A stretch of DNA of 64,000 bases from Escherichia phage vB_EcoM_G2494. Numbering within the stretch: the first letter of the stretch is position 1; every line of letters starts with the position of its first letter. Positions 16,054 through 22,028 of this stretch are shown here, one piece after another. The position numbers and the translations under genes are program-made. Location: the sequence record MK327935.1; one strand, written 5' to 3'. The notes beneath the pieces were generated by a model, which was not told where the DNA came from, ran no database searches, and saw nothing but the letters and a program-made list of their open reading frames with translations.

Positions 16054-16067
16054 CACTTTTTATAAAA

Positions 16068-16235
16068 TTATTTGTTAATTTCCGGTGCGTTGCTTGGATA
16101 GTAACCTTCTTTAACACCCAGGTATTTCGCAACCATCCCTACAATCTTCTGTGCTACTACAATGTCAAATTTCAGATAATCTTCGCCGTGGGTTTCAATG
16201 ATATATGCTTCACATGCTGCTTTAGTCTCGAACAT
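16068..16235 (-). CDS. small early protein (55 aa), copy 1 of duplicated gene
   Basis: ATG with cassette RBS; about 85 percent nt identity by eye to 19861-20028. Confidence 0.55.
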   Translation of the reverse strand: MFETKAACEAYIIETHGEDYLKFDIVVAQKIVGMVAKYLGVKEGYYPSNAPEINK

Positions 16236-16268
16236 TTTGATTCTCCTATTTCGTTTCGTTATGTGTGT

Positions 16269-16845: not shown

Positions 16846-17127
16846 TTATTCGTGATTAGTTTCGATGTTGTGCATTTTGCACCAGTTCAGCCAATCGCCC
16901 AGATCTTGATAGTTGATGCTTTTATCTGCTGCCATCGTTTTTGTCTTGATACCCATATGTGCGTTATGAGTAAGCATTTTTACAGTGAACTCAATTTTAT
17001 CACCTTTAGCTTTAACATCAACCAGTTTGGTCCACTGGCTACCAGCGCCGCGAATGTTCATACCAACGATGTTTCCGATGTATGCTTCTTTGTTTTTCAG
17101 GATTTCGGTTGCTTTGATGAATTTCAT
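16846..17127 (-). CDS. hypothetical early protein (93 aa)
   Basis: ORF with cassette RBS and promoter. Confidence 0.55.
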   Translation of the reverse strand: MKFIKATEILKNKEAYIGNIVGMNIRGAGSQWTKLVDVKAKGDKIEFTVKMLTHNAHMGIKTKTMAADKSINYQDLGDWLNWCKMHNIETNHE

Positions 17128-17160
17128 TTTTGATTCTCCAGTTCGTTTCGGTATGGGTGT

Positions 17161-17189
17161 ATTATGCTATGTTCTTACTTTGGTGTCAA
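17161..17189 (-). promoter_or_regulatory. sigma70-like early promoter
   Basis: TTGACA-17-CATAAT. Confidence 0.55.
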
Positions 17190-17197
17190 CAACTTTT

Positions 17198-17467
17198 TTA
17201 GATATTTTCAGAAATAAATTTTAAAACTTGACGTAAATGTTTCTCGTCTTTGATAGTCGCCGGAAGTTCTTCTTTTACTTCCTGTGCAAGATAGATATTT
17301 CCGTTCCAAGTGAAAGATCCGTCTTCGTTTACGCGATAGCTGAACATCCACTCGCAATCATTTTCGATTTCATATACACACAGAAGGGTGTAATCTTCAA
17401 AGCTATTGATTTCAAGGTCGAAGCCGTGACGTTTTGCAAAGTTGGTAGTGGTTTTAGTCAGTGCCAT
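17198..17467 (-). CDS. hypothetical early protein (89 aa)
   Basis: ORF; 32-bp upstream leader identical to that of 15733-15984. Confidence 0.55.
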   Translation of the reverse strand: MALTKTTTNFAKRHGFDLEINSFEDYTLLCVYEIENDCEWMFSYRVNEDGSFTWNGNIYLAQEVKEELPATIKDEKHLRQVLKFISENI

Positions 17468-17507
17468 TGTTTGATTCTCCTAAGTGGTATCTCGTTTCGA
17501 TGTGTGT

Positions 17508-17536
17508 ATTATGCTATAGGCGTGATCTGGTGTCAA
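17508..17536 (-). promoter_or_regulatory. sigma70-like early promoter
   Basis: TTGACA-17-CATAAT. Confidence 0.55.
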
Positions 17537-17559
17537 TGCCTTTTTTAAAATTTTATGCA

Positions 17560-17592
17560 ATAAAAAAGCCGACACTAAGGTCGGCTAATAAA
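17560..17592 (-). terminator. rho-independent terminator
   Basis: stem GCCGAC/GTCGGC flanked by A6 and T-run. Confidence 0.55.
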
Positions 17593-17593
17593 A

Positions 17594-17902
17594 TCATTTA
17601 GACAAATAATCATTCTGTGCAATCCGGTCGGCGTATGCTGGTGTTATGTCAATCGCCAGCACTTTAACGCGTGCTTTCTTGCGACCTGGGTTTTCTCGTA
17701 ACCAGTGCTCATGACCGTGAACATTTTTATACTGCGATGCTTCTTCGAAGGTACGGATCGGACCTGGGTAATCAGCGTAAAGGATCTCTAGATCTTCGGT
17801 GATGTAAAAATATACATCGTAATTGCTGTTCTCTAGCTTAAGCAGAGACTTTCGGAACATTGGGAGATTTTCGCGGGTAAATTCAAAGATATTATCTTTC
17901 AT
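17594..17902 (-). CDS. HxHW-motif small protein family member a
   Basis: YDVYFYITEDLEILYADY...HGHEHW...VLAIDI. Confidence 0.6.
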   Translation of the reverse strand: MKDNIFEFTRENLPMFRKSLLKLENSNYDVYFYITEDLEILYADYPGPIRTFEEASQYKNVHGHEHWLRENPGRKKARVKVLAIDITPAYADRIAQNDYLSK

Positions 17903-17926
17903 AGTATTATCCTCAATAGTTGGATG

Positions 17927-17950
17927 AAAAGGGGGGCTTAACGCCCCGTA
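17927..17950 (-). terminator. hairpin GGGGCTTAACGCCCC (copy 2)
   Basis: same stem-loop as 13374-13388; follows stop of 17953 gene. Confidence 0.4.
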
Positions 17951-17952
17951 TA

Positions 17953-18240
17953 TTAAAACAGTCCTTCCTGTACACCGTAGTAGAGTTCATCGCTGATAAT
18001 TTCATTAATGCGACGGTGTGCATATTCCTGATTTGCGAAGTTGTCAGCAAGTTCTACTTTAGTTTCGCCGTCATGAGTCCATTTAGTGATAACTTTACCA
18101 TCTGCAAATTTGAAGTTGAACTCTTTAGCTACCGCATCGCGTACCAGACGTGCAAACTTATTGTTGCGGATTGCATTGTCGGTTTCGTGTTCAGCGTGAG
18201 CGAATTTGTTAACTTTCAGAGTGATAGTAATGTATGCCAT
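17953..18240 (-). CDS. hypothetical early protein (95 aa), paralog of 21518-21829
   Basis: shared VAKEFNFKF / LAKEFNTKI segment. Confidence 0.55.
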   Translation of the reverse strand: MAYITITLKVNKFAHAEHETDNAIRNNKFARLVRDAVAKEFNFKFADGKVITKWTHDGETKVELADNFANQEYAHRRINEIISDELYYGVQEGLF

Positions 18241-18286
18241 AATTTGATTCTCCTAGTTAGAAAGTGTATCTCGTTTCGATGGGTGT

Positions 18287-18315
18287 ATTATGCTATACAC
18301 CCGATCTTATGTCAA
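18287..18315 (-). promoter_or_regulatory. sigma70-like early promoter
   Basis: TTGACA-17-CATAAT. Confidence 0.55.
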
Positions 18316-18321
18316 CACTTT

Positions 18322-18600
18322 TTATAAAATAATTTTTTGATATTTTTCTATGATGTTTGTGTAGGTCACATCAACCGCGAGCACCGTTGCTTCGAATCCA
18401 CCGTTTAGCCAATGGCTATGATCGTGATCGTTAAAGAAACCGAGGCCAGTGCGAAGACCTTCTTTATATTCGGCGCGTACATTCAGTTTGTCGTCGATAA
18501 ACAGATAAAACCATGAATTTTTACTAGGATTGATGATACAACCTTTCAGATTAGGGAGAATATCACGACTAAGAATAAACTTATCACCTACTTTGAACAT
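18322..18600 (-). CDS. HxHW-motif family member b
   Basis: WFYLFIDDKLNV...DHDHSHW...VLAVDV; ATG at 18600 with GAGGA RBS. Confidence 0.6.
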   Translation of the reverse strand: MFKVGDKFILSRDILPNLKGCIINPSKNSWFYLFIDDKLNVRAEYKEGLRTGLGFFNDHDHSHWLNGGFEATVLAVDVTYTNIIEKYQKIIL

Positions 18601-18604
18601 AATA

Positions 18605-18925
18605 TTAGTCCTCACTTATAAGGTCAAACCAATTGTTTTTCGCATAATGCTTAATGCGTGCTTGATCTGCTTCCGCTGGTGATAGATTCCATGCGATCAC
18701 TACAACTTCTGACGCATCGTCATCCGTTTCTGATATCCAATGATTGTGATTCATACAGTTATTTGCTATCGCGTGAGCAAATGATCTCATTACTGGAGAC
18801 GTATAATCATAGTAACGGATTTTCAGATTTTCATCAACGTACAAATAGATCGTATAAGGTTTATATTCAGTAACCAGTAACAGACAGTTACGCAATTCTG
18901 GGAAAATCTTTTTAGTTAATTTCAT
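18605..18925 (-). CDS. HxHW-motif family member c
   Basis: YTIYLYVDENL...NHNHW...VVIAWN. Confidence 0.6.
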   Translation of the reverse strand: MKLTKKIFPELRNCLLLVTEYKPYTIYLYVDENLKIRYYDYTSPVMRSFAHAIANNCMNHNHWISETDDDASEVVVIAWNLSPAEADQARIKHYAKNNWFDLISED

Positions 18926-19127
18926 AGTCTATTTCTCCGTAATACACGGTAATCCATTTTTCTTCATACTTTGTATCTTTCCAACACACAATCCCGTTTA
19001 CTGTGCAATCTTTGGAATTGACGAATGATTCATATTGTTCTGCGTCTTCCATCATTGCATGAGCGGTCTTTTCATCGAATATATCGCAGATCGCTTTATA
19101 TGCTCAATAATCTTTAAATTTGCTCAT
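18912..19127 (-). pseudogene. paralog of 19130-19339 interrupted by in-frame TGA at codon 8
   Basis: MSKFKDY-TGA-AYKAI...; TGA at 19106-19104 where intact copy has AAA; frame otherwise open for 71 codons. Confidence 0.45.
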
Positions 19128-19129
19128 AA

Positions 19130-19339
19130 TTAAGACCACTCAAGAGTTTTTGAAAACACATCTATCCATTGTTGAGTATATGCGGTTTCTTTCCATGATA
19201 CAATACCAGTAGAATAATGGTTTTTGTTTCCAGAAAAGGACGGGCATTTTGATGCGTCTTCCATCATCTTTTCGGCGAACTCTGGTTCGTATACTCGCAA
19301 GATCTGTTGATATGCTTTGTAGTCTTTAAATTTGCTCAT
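19130..19339 (-). CDS. hypothetical early protein (69 aa)
   Basis: intact copy MSKFKDYKAYQQ... Confidence 0.55.
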   Translation of the reverse strand: MSKFKDYKAYQQILRVYEPEFAEKMMEDASKCPSFSGNKNHYSTGIVSWKETAYTQQWIDVFSKTLEWS

Positions 19340-19604
19340 AATCGTTAACTACCTTATCAGCTTCTTTTATTGTTTTTACATCAACTGCGATAACCCGTAA
19401 AGGTTCGTCATGGTTCCACCAATGATCGTGAATATCGGCTTGTGATTTATCACCAAAGGAATCACGAATATCATTTTTACATTTATAGCTAATGTGACCT
19501 TCATAGTCAACATAAAGGTAATTATCGAAAATCGGCGTTTTTAAGATCATACCGAAAAATCTTTCTTTGTGTGTCTTATCCAGTGTTGCAGTAATTCGCA
19601 TCAT
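19326..19604 (-). CDS. HxHW-motif family member d
   Basis: YLYVDYEGHISY...HDHWW...VIAVDV. Confidence 0.6.
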   Translation of the reverse strand: MMRITATLDKTHKERFFGMILKTPIFDNYLYVDYEGHISYKCKNDIRDSFGDKSQADIHDHWWNHDEPLRVIAVDVKTIKEADKVVNDYEQI

Positions 19605-19616
19605 AATATATTCCTC

Positions 19617-19796
19617 TTAGAAAGGGATGGTCATTTCTTGAGCTTGTACATTCTCGTTAGGATTAAACTTCATCCAACCGATATTGTCTACCAGCATATG
19701 CACATTTTTATCATATCCTACGTGAGTAGTCAACACTAAATGTGATTTACCTTCAACGATGATTTCCATGTACTTCTGAACTTCGATAGCTTTCAT
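19617..19796 (-). CDS. small early protein (59 aa)
   Basis: ATG with cassette RBS GGAGAATCAAA; not in ORF track. Confidence 0.5.
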   Translation of the reverse strand: MKAIEVQKYMEIIVEGKSHLVLTTHVGYDKNVHMLVDNIGWMKFNPNENVQAQEMTIPF

Positions 19797-19860
19797 TTTG
19801 ATTCTCCGTTTGTTGTCTTGATGGGAGTATCTTACTACTCCCTTTAATCATTGTCAACGA

Positions 19861-20028
19861 TTATTTGTTAATTTCCGGTGCGTTGCTTGGATAGTAGCCT
19901 TCTTTAACACCCAGATATTTTGCAACCATTCCGGTGATCTTCTGTGCTACTACGATATCGAATTTCAGGTAGTCTTCACCGTGGTTTGCTACAATGTATG
20001 CTTCGCATTCTGCTTTAGTCTGGAACAT
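19861..20028 (-). CDS. small early protein (55 aa), copy 2 of duplicated gene
   Basis: ORF track 86-aa call over-extends through promoter; true ATG at 20028 behind cassette RBS. Confidence 0.55.
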   Translation of the reverse strand: MFQTKAECEAYIVANHGEDYLKFDIVVAQKITGMVAKYLGVKEGYYPSNAPEINK

Positions 20029-20062
20029 TTTTGATTCTCCTATATCTCGTTGGTATGTGTGT

Positions 20063-20091
20063 AGTATAGGGGATCGGTGATCCCCTGTCAA
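20063..20091 (-). promoter_or_regulatory. sigma70-like early promoter
   Basis: TTGACA, palindromic 17-bp spacer GGGGATCACCGATCCCC, TATACT. Confidence 0.55.
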
Positions 20092-20101
20092 CAACTTTTT
20101 T

Positions 20102-20410
20102 TTATTCTTCATCTTCATCATTATCTTTATATGCGTACTTCATAAATTTGTCTGCTACTTCGTCCGCGTTTTCAGGTTCTACGTCTGACGCTAGGACAAC
20201 AGCTAGTTCGGTTTTGTCGTTTCCATCATACCAATGATTATGAGTGTCGTTTTCTTCGATATAAAACGAATCAGTTGGAGTTGTGCGACAATATACGTCT
20301 AAATTCCCATCGATATAAAAGATCCAATCCGAATACAAAATGATTGTTTTAGCAAGATTTTTATTGTCTCTCACAAAAGGTTCTGAGACAAATAGCTTAG
20401 TTTGTTCCAT
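20102..20410 (-). CDS. HxHW-motif family member e
   Basis: WIFYIDGNLDVY...HNHWY...AVVLASDV; ATG at 20410 with GAGGAAAA RBS. Confidence 0.6.
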   Translation of the reverse strand: MEQTKLFVSEPFVRDNKNLAKTIILYSDWIFYIDGNLDVYCRTTPTDSFYIEENDTHNHWYDGNDKTELAVVLASDVEPENADEVADKFMKYAYKDNDEDEE

Positions 20411-20426
20411 AACATTTTCCTCAAAA

Positions 20427-20618
20427 TTATACAGCTTCGTAAACTTCCCAATGTCCAGCGCCAACACGCTTAACGAAAAGGTTTTCTTTGATGTTATTCA
20501 TAAACGTCTGGATGGATTTAATGCGGTTTGAAGGTTTCCAGTCTTCGTTGGAATTGCGTCGATACATCATAACATTACCAGTTCGCTTATATTCAGCAAC
20601 CATTTTAAGACCATACAT
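20427..20618 (-). CDS. hypothetical protein (63 aa)
   Basis: ORF fills gap between family members e and f; no clear RBS. Confidence 0.4.
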   Translation of the reverse strand: MYGLKMVAEYKRTGNVMMYRRNSNEDWKPSNRIKSIQTFMNNIKENLFVKRVGAGHWEVYEAV

Positions 20619-20669
20619 AATATTATCATCAATTTGTGGGAGAGTATTACCCTCCCGATTATTGTTATA

Positions 20670-20978
20670 CTACATTACGCAAAATGGCGTGTCAATACTT
20701 CTTTTTGCTGTTCCGCTAAGATTCTCGATCTCTCCTGGCATAACATCAACCGCCAGAACTTCTACAACATCCTCTGATCCTAACCAGTGAGTATGACCTT
20801 TGTAGAACTTGATATCCCATTTATCGCTATCGCTAGCCCACCACACATCACCGTCTATAAAGTTGATGTAAAGCACACTACGACACATTGAATTAGTTAC
20901 TTTCAATACTGCGCCTTTCATCTCTTCCACGGTATGGTCTTCCATTTTGAAGACCTCGCCTACCTTAACTTTTGCCAT
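20670..20978 (-). CDS. HxHW-motif family member f
   Basis: LYINFIDGDVWW...HTHWL...VLAVDV; start coupled to stop of member g (TAACATG). Confidence 0.6.
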   Translation of the reverse strand: MAKVKVGEVFKMEDHTVEEMKGAVLKVTNSMCRSVLYINFIDGDVWWASDSDKWDIKFYKGHTHWLGSEDVVEVLAVDVMPGEIENLSGTAKRSIDTPFCVM

Positions 20979-20979
20979 G

Positions 20980-21246
20980 TTACATGTTCCGAATATGTTT
21001 AGATGCATCTTCCAGTTCGTCGATAGTGACACTGTGAGCCAGTAAGTGTACTGGTTGTGGTTCTTCACCTTCCATAGTATTGATCAGATGACCGTTTCCT
21101 GGGTGGAATGTATCGTTGCCGTTCCAAATAGCATACACATCATCTTCTGTTACGTAGATAATAAGTCCAATCGGTGATTCTGGTAATTGAAAAATTTTAC
21201 CCACTGCATCTTTGCGATTGTCTACGATATCTTTGACTGTCTTCAT
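20980..21246 (-). CDS. HxHW-family-related protein g (divergent)
   Basis: LIIYVTEDDVYAIW...HPGNGHL...HLLAHSV. Confidence 0.5.
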   Translation of the reverse strand: MKTVKDIVDNRKDAVGKIFQLPESPIGLIIYVTEDDVYAIWNGNDTFHPGNGHLINTMEGEEPQPVHLLAHSVTIDELEDASKHIRNM

Positions 21247-21265
21247 TTAGTTACCTCTCTTTAAA

Positions 21266-21445
21266 TTACATCACAATCACGCCAGCCGTAGAAAGTTGAT
21301 GTTTCAACTGAGCATTTTCTGCTACTGTCAAATCAATAATTTCTTGTGACGCTGCAATCATATAGCCATTGGTGATATTGTTTTGCATCAGTTCAATGGT
21401 TTCTTCGTTGTAGCGGATTTTAGCGATGATTTCGTTGAAGTTCAT
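21266..21445 (-). CDS. small early protein (59 aa)
   Basis: ATG behind cassette RBS; not in ORF track. Confidence 0.5.
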   Translation of the reverse strand: MNFNEIIAKIRYNEETIELMQNNITNGYMIAASQEIIDLTVAENAQLKHQLSTAGVIVM

Positions 21446-21479
21446 AATTGATTCTCCTAGTTCGTTTCGGTATGTGTGT

Positions 21480-21509
21480 ATTATAGGGGAGTTTAACCTC
21501 CCCTGTCAA
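21480..21509 (-). promoter_or_regulatory. sigma70-like early promoter
   Basis: TTGACA, palindromic spacer (18 bp), TATAAT. Confidence 0.5.
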
Positions 21510-21517
21510 CAACTTTT

Positions 21518-21829
21518 TTAAAGTTTTTCCATGATAACGGTCATAATTACATCTTCTGCGCGAGCGGTCAGATTATCAGCGTCAGCATGTGGGCGGTTGG
21601 TTGTTACAGAGATAACACCGTTGCGCACTGGTTTGATATTGATATCAAGATGATCCGCGAAACGTTCGCCAGTTACAGAATGAATTTTGGTGTTAAATTC
21701 TTTTGCCAGTGCCTTGCGAACTTCACGAATCAGGATAGCGTTTTTCAGTTGGTTCTCCGCGCTCATGGTCTTCTGGGTGTTCATGGTTCCGTCGAAGTCA
21801 ATCATTGGCAGCGTTACGATGTATTTCAT
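21518..21829 (-). CDS. hypothetical early protein (103 aa), paralog of 17953-18240
   Basis: shared LAKEFNTKI segment. Confidence 0.55.
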   Translation of the reverse strand: MKYIVTLPMIDFDGTMNTQKTMSAENQLKNAILIREVRKALAKEFNTKIHSVTGERFADHLDINIKPVRNGVISVTTNRPHADADNLTARAEDVIMTVIMEKL

Positions 21830-21874
21830 TTTTGATTCTCCGTTTAAGAAAGTGTGTTTCGTTTTGATGTGTGT

Positions 21875-21903
21875 AGTATAGGGGATACGTGATCCCCTGT
21901 CAA
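21875..21903 (-). promoter_or_regulatory. sigma70-like early promoter
   Basis: TTGACA, spacer GGGGATCACGTATCCCC, TATACT. Confidence 0.55.
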
Positions 21904-21996
21904 CAACTTTTTTGAATTATTTTTTCATGAGCTTAATGGCTTCTTCCATAGCCAGCACATTTCGATAGTTAGGGTATCGTGTTAGATCGTCATACA

Positions 21997-22028
21997 TTCG
22001 CTTAAGGGTGGATTCGCTTAAGGGTGGA
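21997..22028. repeat. perfect 16-bp tandem duplication (TTCGCTTAAGGGTGGA x2)
   Basis: two adjacent identical 16-mers at 21997-22012 and 22013-22028; creates the stop of the 22002-22262 ORF. Confidence 0.9.

Follow-up and report, generated by a model that had tools for sequence, protein, structure and literature searches.

A six-copy family of small paralogous proteins, with a distant seventh relative, between alt and gene 30 of RB49-like Escherichia phages

Introduction

Small early proteins by which T4-type phages take over the host or counter its defences, such as Arn, Dmd, IPI*, Acb2, and AsiA, act by binding host proteins or signals. They are about 60–110 amino acids (aa) long, soluble, and neutral to acidic, and are driven by early sigma70 promoters in non-essential variable regions, features that the proteins described here appear to share. 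To our knowledge, none of them forms a six-copy tandem family. In genomic context, the closest described systems are the ORFan modules of phages RB49 and phi1 (Arbiol et al. 2010, PMC2839356; Comeau et al. 2014, PMC4122927), which are bounded by PeSL cassettes, each pairing a strong early promoter of the sigma70-like type with a stem-loop terminator. Experiments have shown these promoters and terminators to be strong, and the cassettes recombine with one another, shuffling database-orphan open reading frames (ORFs) within hyperplastic regions (PMC2839356). Both studies described the cassettes and the shuffling of ORFans but no paralogous protein family (the word "paralog" has no occurrence). 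More generally, T4-like phages carry their novel ORFs in clusters with early genes, and cloning some of these ORFs proved toxic (PMC1524935). Here, we describe six paralogous genes (p1–p6) and a distant seventh relative (p7) in a 64,000-nucleotide (nt) stretch of Escherichia phage vB_EcoM_G2494 (MK327935.1), hereafter the window. The locus lies in the same genomic region as the PeSL-bounded modules, with the same promoter and stem-loop cassettes, and likewise consists of small, database-orphan, putatively early genes.

Results

To test paralogy, we built leave-one-out profile hidden Markov models (HMMs) and ran them on the 608 ORFs of 40 aa or more that a six-frame translation of the window yields. 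Each of p1–p6 was recovered by a model built without that member (E = 4e-8 to 5.5e-15), and unrelated ORFs began at E > 0.05. All six are on the minus strand: p1 (17594–17902; 102 aa; leave-one-out E = 4.5e-12), p2 (18322–18600; 92 aa; 4e-8), p3 (18605–18925; 106 aa; 5.5e-15), p4 (19326–19604; 92 aa; 2.1e-8), p5 (20102–20410; 102 aa; 3.2e-10), and p6 (20670–20978; 102 aa; 4.7e-9). They are orthologs of RB49p197, p199, p200, p203, p206, and p208, respectively, and their gene lengths agree with those annotated in RB49. Across the window ORFs, which total 51,572 aa, the pattern H.HW had exactly six occurrences, one per member of p1–p6, where the motif reads HGHEHW, HDHSHW, NHNHW, IHDHWW, THNHW, and GHTHW in that order. 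Neither the HMM search of the 608 ORFs nor the H.HW scan found an additional member in the window. By these two tests, p1–p6 are true paralogs, and the family with a shared architecture proposed in the initial annotation of this DNA was borne out for these six, which are mutually 21–39% identical.

Existing databases hold the family in pieces. In PHROGs, p1–p6 matched families 9345, 17255, 15972, 15965, and 16486 (E = 1e-49 to 1e-64), all labeled "unknown function", which serve as bins for the individual orthogroups: p1 and p3 fall in phrog_9345, p2 in phrog_17255, and p4 in phrog_15972. The five bins are not linked, and only weak cross-hits to phrog_9345, as seen for p2 and p4, betray the relationship. 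No PHROGs match was found for p7.

An AlphaFold2 (AF2) model of p1, built from a 29-sequence alignment, was confident, with a predicted local distance difference test score (pLDDT) of 82.7 and a predicted template modelling (TM) score (pTM) of 0.79. The scaffold is predicted to be a compact alpha/beta domain (beta-alpha-beta-beta-beta-alpha-alpha-beta-alpha), with beta1 at residues 5–8, an alpha helix at 13–16, beta2 at 19–23, beta3 at 29–34, beta4 at 40–45, an alpha helix at 52–59, a short helix at 65–68, beta5 at 77–83, and a C-terminal helix at 88–100. All of p1–p6 carry an [HNS]-x-H-W motif between beta4 and beta5; in the model, the motif falls on the short helix, after the loop modelled with least confidence; the N-terminal sheet lies before it and the last strand beyond it. 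The Y-x-Y-I-D-E and V-L-A-x-D-V strands that had been picked out in the initial annotation are genuine conserved elements and correspond to beta3 and beta5.

In a 26-sequence alignment that included divergent members, H66 and W67 were invariant (26/26), followed by H64 (24/26), Y33 (23/26), D35 (20/26), and F52 (18/26); position 85 was D or N in 23/26 and position 92 was D, N, or E in 22/26. The V-L-A-x-[DN]-V strand and an A-D where the last helix begins were also conserved. When the seventh branch was included, only H66 remained invariant. Thus, the supposedly invariant H-x-H-W holds for the second His and the Trp in the core family, but not for the first His, which is Ser or missing in some p5-type proteins, nor for p7, which reads GNGHL. 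These alignments show the His-Trp pair to be the sole invariant polar feature, reduced to the His once the seventh branch is counted. The divergent acidic tails that had been ascribed to the family apply to p5, the only member with a strongly acidic tail (isoelectric point (pI) 4.2), and marginally to p3, but not to the others (p1 and p2, pI 6.3–6.8). The grand average of hydropathy (GRAVY) of the family proteins was negative, and no signal peptide or hydrophobic segment was apparent in them.

The seventh ORF, p7 (20980–21246, minus strand; 88 aa), cannot be placed at equal standing with the others, as a seven-member family would require: it lacks the motif, keeping only the His in G-N-G-H-L, and was not recovered in the leave-one-out search (E = 0.4, rank 9). 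However, a profile of p7 and five homologs aligned with the 29-sequence family profile at a probability of 95.8% (hhalign; E = 6.7e-9, 71 columns), and the family HMM found the Salmonella prophage homolog of p7 at E = 1.5e-4 among 161 ORFs. A joint alignment places the strands IYVTEDDVY and VHLLAHSV, as well as the central His, in register with the family. In a Foldseek search of BFVD, the p1 model matched an 88-aa protein of phage JSE (probability 1.0, TM 0.49/0.56), which is probably the p7 ortholog because JSE carries one that is 96.6% identical. The AF2 model of p7 itself, from its own shallow alignment, was too weak (pLDDT 63.6) to fix the fold, and was compatible in its order of secondary structures. 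With profile-profile similarity, independent links, and a compatible predicted fold, p7 qualifies as a distant relative of the p1–p6 family.

The distribution of p7 also sets it apart. It was present in 8 of the 58 Krischvirus records in the phage collection and in one of nine closely compared genomes; its length equals that of a 267-nt gene of phage G2248. Its closest relatives outside Krischvirus are at Salmonella prophage edges: homologs 58–72% identical are common in Salmonella enterica chromosomes, where they are the last gene at the edge of a lambdoid-type prophage. At four such loci (L003–L005, 8001–8294; L018, 10001–10306), the homolog is the terminal prophage gene directly beside host metabolic genes, and at L018 it adjoins a hicAB toxin-antitoxin pair. 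In this respect, the seventh branch resembles accessory genes of the "moron" or edge type known from temperate phages of enterobacteria, a likeness of gene position that concerns this branch only. Among the seven, only p7, being sporadic, behaves like a mobile accessory gene.

Searches for a known family or fold returned nothing characterized. In Pfam, the seven proteins and all 29 aligned members gave only sub-threshold, inconsistent hits (PROCT in three p2 orthologs, E = 0.002), and NCBIfam gave nothing meaningful. The best matches in PDB sequence searches (profiles A2 and A5, and p2 alone) had E = 0.2–1.1, and the best Foldseek match in the PDB had E = 0.73. In BFVD, the p1 model retrieved only family members and a marginal 87-aa protein of Pseudoalteromonas phage pYD6-A (M4SRW3; E = 0.046, probability 0.98, TM 0.53/0.61), which could be a very distant relative outside enterobacterial phages. 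The proteins showed no sequence or structural similarity to Arn, Dmd, IPI*, Acb2, or AsiA, in contrast to their likeness in size and setting, and none to known anti-defence proteins (Acr, Tad, Acb, and similar).

Several candidate folds were considered and rejected. The HIT superfamily was set aside since only p1 and p2 have three alternating His, with polar intervening residues, and no Pfam HIT hit was obtained. The metallo-beta-lactamase fold, whose defining features are H-x-H-x-D-H and an alpha-beta/beta-alpha sandwich spanning 200 aa or more, was likewise rejected because the proteins lack them. A KOW/SH3-like barrel had been suggested by the source label of one database protein ("KOW2-KOW3 domains of Spt5", P0070) and by a VG[DE]...KG pattern in the p2 and p6 N-termini; none of the 29 members gave a Pfam KOW hit at E ≤ 1, and no PDB sequence hit was found.

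No description of the family was found in the literature on RB49, phi1, and PeSL, or by full-text searching on the motif, on early or accessory genes of Krischvirus, and on paralogs in RB49. The suggestion that the family might be undescribed therefore stood, since neither profile (Pfam, NCBIfam, PDB, PHROGs) nor Foldseek searches placed it anywhere characterized. These results show that p1–p6 form a real, narrow, previously unlinked, and undescribed family with no detectable known fold.

We investigated the distribution of the family. Positions 17000–22000 of the window matched 58 phage records at 91–97% identity (megablast), all RB49-like coliphages; by this sequence similarity, the phage is a Krischvirus, an RB49-like T4 relative of the Straboviridae. 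A word-indexed profile search of 5.8 billion proteins gave 88 hits, all within the six orthogroups; none had a Pfam domain, and wherever a long contig was known, it was phage-sized. An exhaustive HMMER search of 1.84 billion representatives at 50% identity found only 21 proteins at E ≤ 0.001, and a broadened profile gained only members of the seventh branch. Two long repeat proteins matched in the exhaustive search (P0107 and P0108; E = 1.7e-4 and 7.3e-4) were treated as probably spurious. The second is a 965-aa lipoprotein-like protein with repeats of about 130 aa, each containing ..FYINT.TGKxHWLSG..; its five weak stretches (E = 7e-4) are probably due to chance. These searches show the family to be lineage-restricted, confined to Krischvirus and a few uncultured T4-like relatives.

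Within the genus, p1–p6 were present in 9/9 compared genomes in identical order, as intact ORFs with 1:1 orthologs. The median pairwise dN/dS (nonsynonymous over synonymous substitution rate) across these nine genomes was 0.19, 0.09, 0.23, 0.06, 0.19, and 0.17 for p1 to p6, which shows that the six copies are fixed in the genus and under purifying selection. Divergent metagenomic members sorted cleanly into p2-, p3-, p4-, p5-, or p6-like types, and the paralog groups persist even where the orthologs of a relative have just 38–48% identity. Because the groups are already distinct in such divergent uncultured relatives, the duplications are old, each copy having been conserved since. On a 2.1-kb contig of an uncultured relative (L002), five copies of the domain occur in a row and two of them are fused: the 203-aa fusion (P0095; 823–1434) joins a p2-like to a p5-like domain through a Lys/Asp-rich linker of about 20 aa. 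Two p5-like copies also occupy the ligase–alt interval on a 20-kb contig from a T4-like phage that is more distant, its ligase being 72% identical to that of the window.

Two of the genes vary within the genus. For p5, two allelic types exist, with 94–95% and 71–73% aa identity to the window copy (20102–20410 compared with loci L001 and L006–L013; median dS 0.87), a split that suggests replacement by recombination with a divergent lineage. A 6-aa indel is polymorphic in p6. At the 3' end of p6 (20700–20710), the window has AAAAA, versus AAAA in 9/9 compared Krischvirus genomes; the extra A, which is either genuine or an error in sequencing the homopolymer, shifts the frame of the last 11 codons, giving KRSIDTPFCVM in place of KEALTRHFA/V.

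The array occupies a hyperplastic interval with alt on one side and the DNA ligase gene (gene 30) on the other. The counterpart stretch of RB49 lies between the same two genes, with every gene annotated as "hypothetical protein", and RB49 ORF192 and ORF210, the subjects of Arbiol et al. 2010, border the present array on both sides (PMC2839356). All seven ORFs were verified to have ATG starts and stop codons, and Shine-Dalgarno sites were clear for six of them; the exception is p6, which starts 1 nt past the p7 stop codon. Similarly, p2 starts 4 nt past the p3 stop codon. The genes are not consecutive, as first described; six other small ORFs are interspersed among them.

Six strong promoter-like sites (TTGACA-17/18-TATAAT, 10–12 of 12 consensus positions) were found, at 21509, 20695, 20091, 19857, 18315, and 17536. 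Each stands before a different small leader ORF rather than a family gene, and the family genes are the second to sixth cistrons of four short units. It was thus wrong to assign most of them their own promoter cassette; only p2 has a weak 10/12 match upstream. Nor are the family ORFs directly flanked by PeSL cassettes in the sense of the modules of Arbiol et al. 2010, since they are internal or distal cistrons behind leaders. They differ from the shuffled ORFans of those modules also in that p1–p6 are fixed in Krischvirus. The cassettes belong to repeat families, with eight copies within 15.5–22.5 kb.

The four units, all on the minus strand, read as follows. A PeSL-type early promoter at 21480–21509 (TTGACA-18-TATAAT, 12/12; repeat families D4 and D5), whose spacer contains a GC stem-loop, precedes a 59-aa leader ORF (21266–21445), p7, and p6. 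The 3' end of p6 overlaps the -35 box of the next promoter-like cassette (20667–20695, 10/12), which precedes a 63-aa leader ORF (20427–20618) and p5; in all compared phages, the -35 region of this cassette encodes the p6 C-terminus. A third cassette (19829–19857, 10/12) leads a 59-aa leader (19617–19796), p4, a 69-aa ORF, a truncated ORF, p3, and p2. Finally, a PeSL-type promoter at 18287–18315 (11/12; repeat family D2) precedes a 95-aa ORF (17953–18240), a hairpin, and p1; this short, putatively early unit ends with p1 and is closed by a hairpin with a T-run resembling an intrinsic terminator (17567–17586). Because the promoters match the consensus and the same cassettes have been studied experimentally in RB49 and phi1, we infer that the family proteins are made in the first minutes of infection.

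Duplication is also seen among neighboring genes. Two tandem paralogous small genes at 18912–19130 and 19130–19339 share 41% identity (E = 7e-12). The downstream copy has TGA at codon 8, versus CGA in PHB13, Whisky, and E26, and because of this codon it is either truncated in the window phage or restarts at an internal ATG (19055). A 172-nt direct duplicate (16067–16238 and 19860–20031; 87% identical) encodes an ORF of about 55 aa (..GEDYLKFDIVVAQK..) with two different PeSL cassettes upstream; such a recent duplication is what recombination between cassettes would be expected to produce. A similarity seen by eye between the 95-aa ORF at 17953–18240 and a 103-aa ORF at 21518–21829 was unsupported (BLASTP E = 8.2).

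Discussion

The descriptive part of this account, namely the family, its copies, the scaffold, and the location, is in our view very probably correct. What the proteins do is a matter of graded likelihood. Purifying selection on each copy and the 1:1 orthologs lead us to infer that the copies are non-redundant, and a function in host interaction or anti-defence may reasonably be proposed. Taken as a whole, an explanation in which p1–p6 are non-redundant early effectors that bind host targets seems to us evenly poised between right and wrong. Its mechanistic part is more tentative, and we hold it as the likeliest mode of action, though still doubtful: the proteins would be stoichiometric binders in which a common scaffold and His-Trp core carry divergent surfaces that engage different host proteins, with host takeover or neutralized host defences as the outcome. 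The family would have expanded probably via recombination between PeSL cassettes, as documented for this region. That a p2-type and a p5-type domain occur naturally fused hints that family members may act as dimers or hetero-oligomers.

Several points weigh against this explanation. Early expression is a prediction from promoter consensus and from literature on close relatives. Fixation in every genome and low dN/dS look more like a conserved physiological function than counter-defence. Moreover, a catalytic or metal site would explain the invariant His just as well, given that a second His is frequent and that Asp/Asn occur at positions 35, 85, and 92.

We also weighed other roles. Seven diverging tandem copies had originally been read as an arms-race arsenal, in which rapidly diversifying anti-defence proteins are each directed against a different variable host immune system. 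The hyperplastic setting rich in accessory ORFans, the two divergent allelic types of p5, the indel variants of p6, and the sporadic p7 with its prophage-edge positions would all fit. So would the lack of a 5-hydroxymethylcytosine (hmC) pathway in Krischvirus, some members of which have canonical cytosine, so that other counter-defences would be useful (PMC13390438). Two phages of this genus, SAP and TB34, share 99.96% identity but differ in their cytosines, which are fully modified in one and canonical in the other; known hmC-pathway genes are absent from Krischvirus (PMC13390438). SAP (locus L012) carries all six core family members. However, an arsenal predicts patchy presence and diversifying selection, whereas p1–p6 are found in 9/9 genomes in fixed order with dN/dS of 0.06–0.23, and their paralog groups are older than the genus. 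For the core six, this reading is unsupported, and we judge it unlikely. At the opposite extreme, the copies might be redundant or decaying by-products of PeSL-mediated recombination with no individual role. Tandem duplication and decay are indeed visible in the region (the 172-nt duplicate, the nonsense codon in a neighboring paralog, and the frameshifted p6 tail), but the same low dN/dS, intact 1:1 orthologs in nine genomes, and retention of the paralog groups in relatives with orthologs 38–48% identical largely refute this idea, which we regard as scarcely tenable.

Two further explanations turn on the motif. The proteins might be small metal-dependent or His-catalyzed enzymes, or metal-binding modules, with a site formed by H-x-H and Asp/Asn and possibly completed across a dimer interface. 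The conservation of H64 (24/26), H66 (26/26), D35 (20/26), and the acidic or amide residues at positions 85 (23/26) and 92 (22/26) would suit such a site, as would the H-x-H-x-H-W of p1 and p2 and the hint of dimers in the tandem fusion. Nevertheless, Asp85 is Asn or Gly in 11 of the 26 sequences, there is no conserved Cys, a single invariant polar residue in a 90-aa domain is atypical of enzymes, and no Pfam matches to HIT, metallo-beta-lactamase, or cupin were found. The two-His site is further weakened because the first His is replaceable: the whole seventh branch has Asn there, and some p5-type orthologs have Ser or lack the residue, which leaves only one invariant His. We consider this quite improbable. 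Alternatively, oligomers of the domain could act as sponges for small molecules or signaling nucleotides, sequestering an immune signal or metabolite in the manner of Tad1, Tad2, and Acb2, with the His-Trp pair stacking on a base. An invariant aromatic residue with a His is typical of nucleotide pockets, and the size, solubility, and putative early expression of the proteins would be suitable, as would the oligomerization suggested by the fusion protein. Yet six fixed paralogs would need six ligands, and the Trp is replaced by Leu in the seventh branch; this explanation appears very improbable.

A bolder reading can be imagined, in which the six paralogs are immune or host-factor inhibitors with a new fold, each for a different E. 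coli target, either a defence protein or a signaling nucleotide held in a His-Trp pocket at a dimer interface, and the seventh branch is this module again, passed among temperate phages of Salmonella and residing at prophage edges as an accessory gene. In this full form it is speculative and, on balance, unlikely. If it were true, the locus would be a compact "anti-defence island" built from one scaffold.

What the locus offers is a tractable ORFan family with clear bounds, not a surprising mechanism. Should the role prove to be an ordinary structural or regulatory one, the finding would serve only to annotate the genomes of Krischvirus, a genus used in phage therapy. In either case, a database fragmentation is corrected, in that five unlinked PHROGs and one unbinned protein become one family. 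For experiments, the family provides six related proteins that are non-redundant and share a small scaffold that appears to be novel, one invariant His-Trp feature open to mutation, a natural two-domain fusion, and a distant branch in Salmonella prophages, which together permit comparative specificity experiments. Much of the genome of T4-type phages consists of early ORFans of unassigned role, and multi-copy families that have become fixed and are maintained by purifying selection rank with the best starting points for finding new mechanisms of host takeover or counter-defence.

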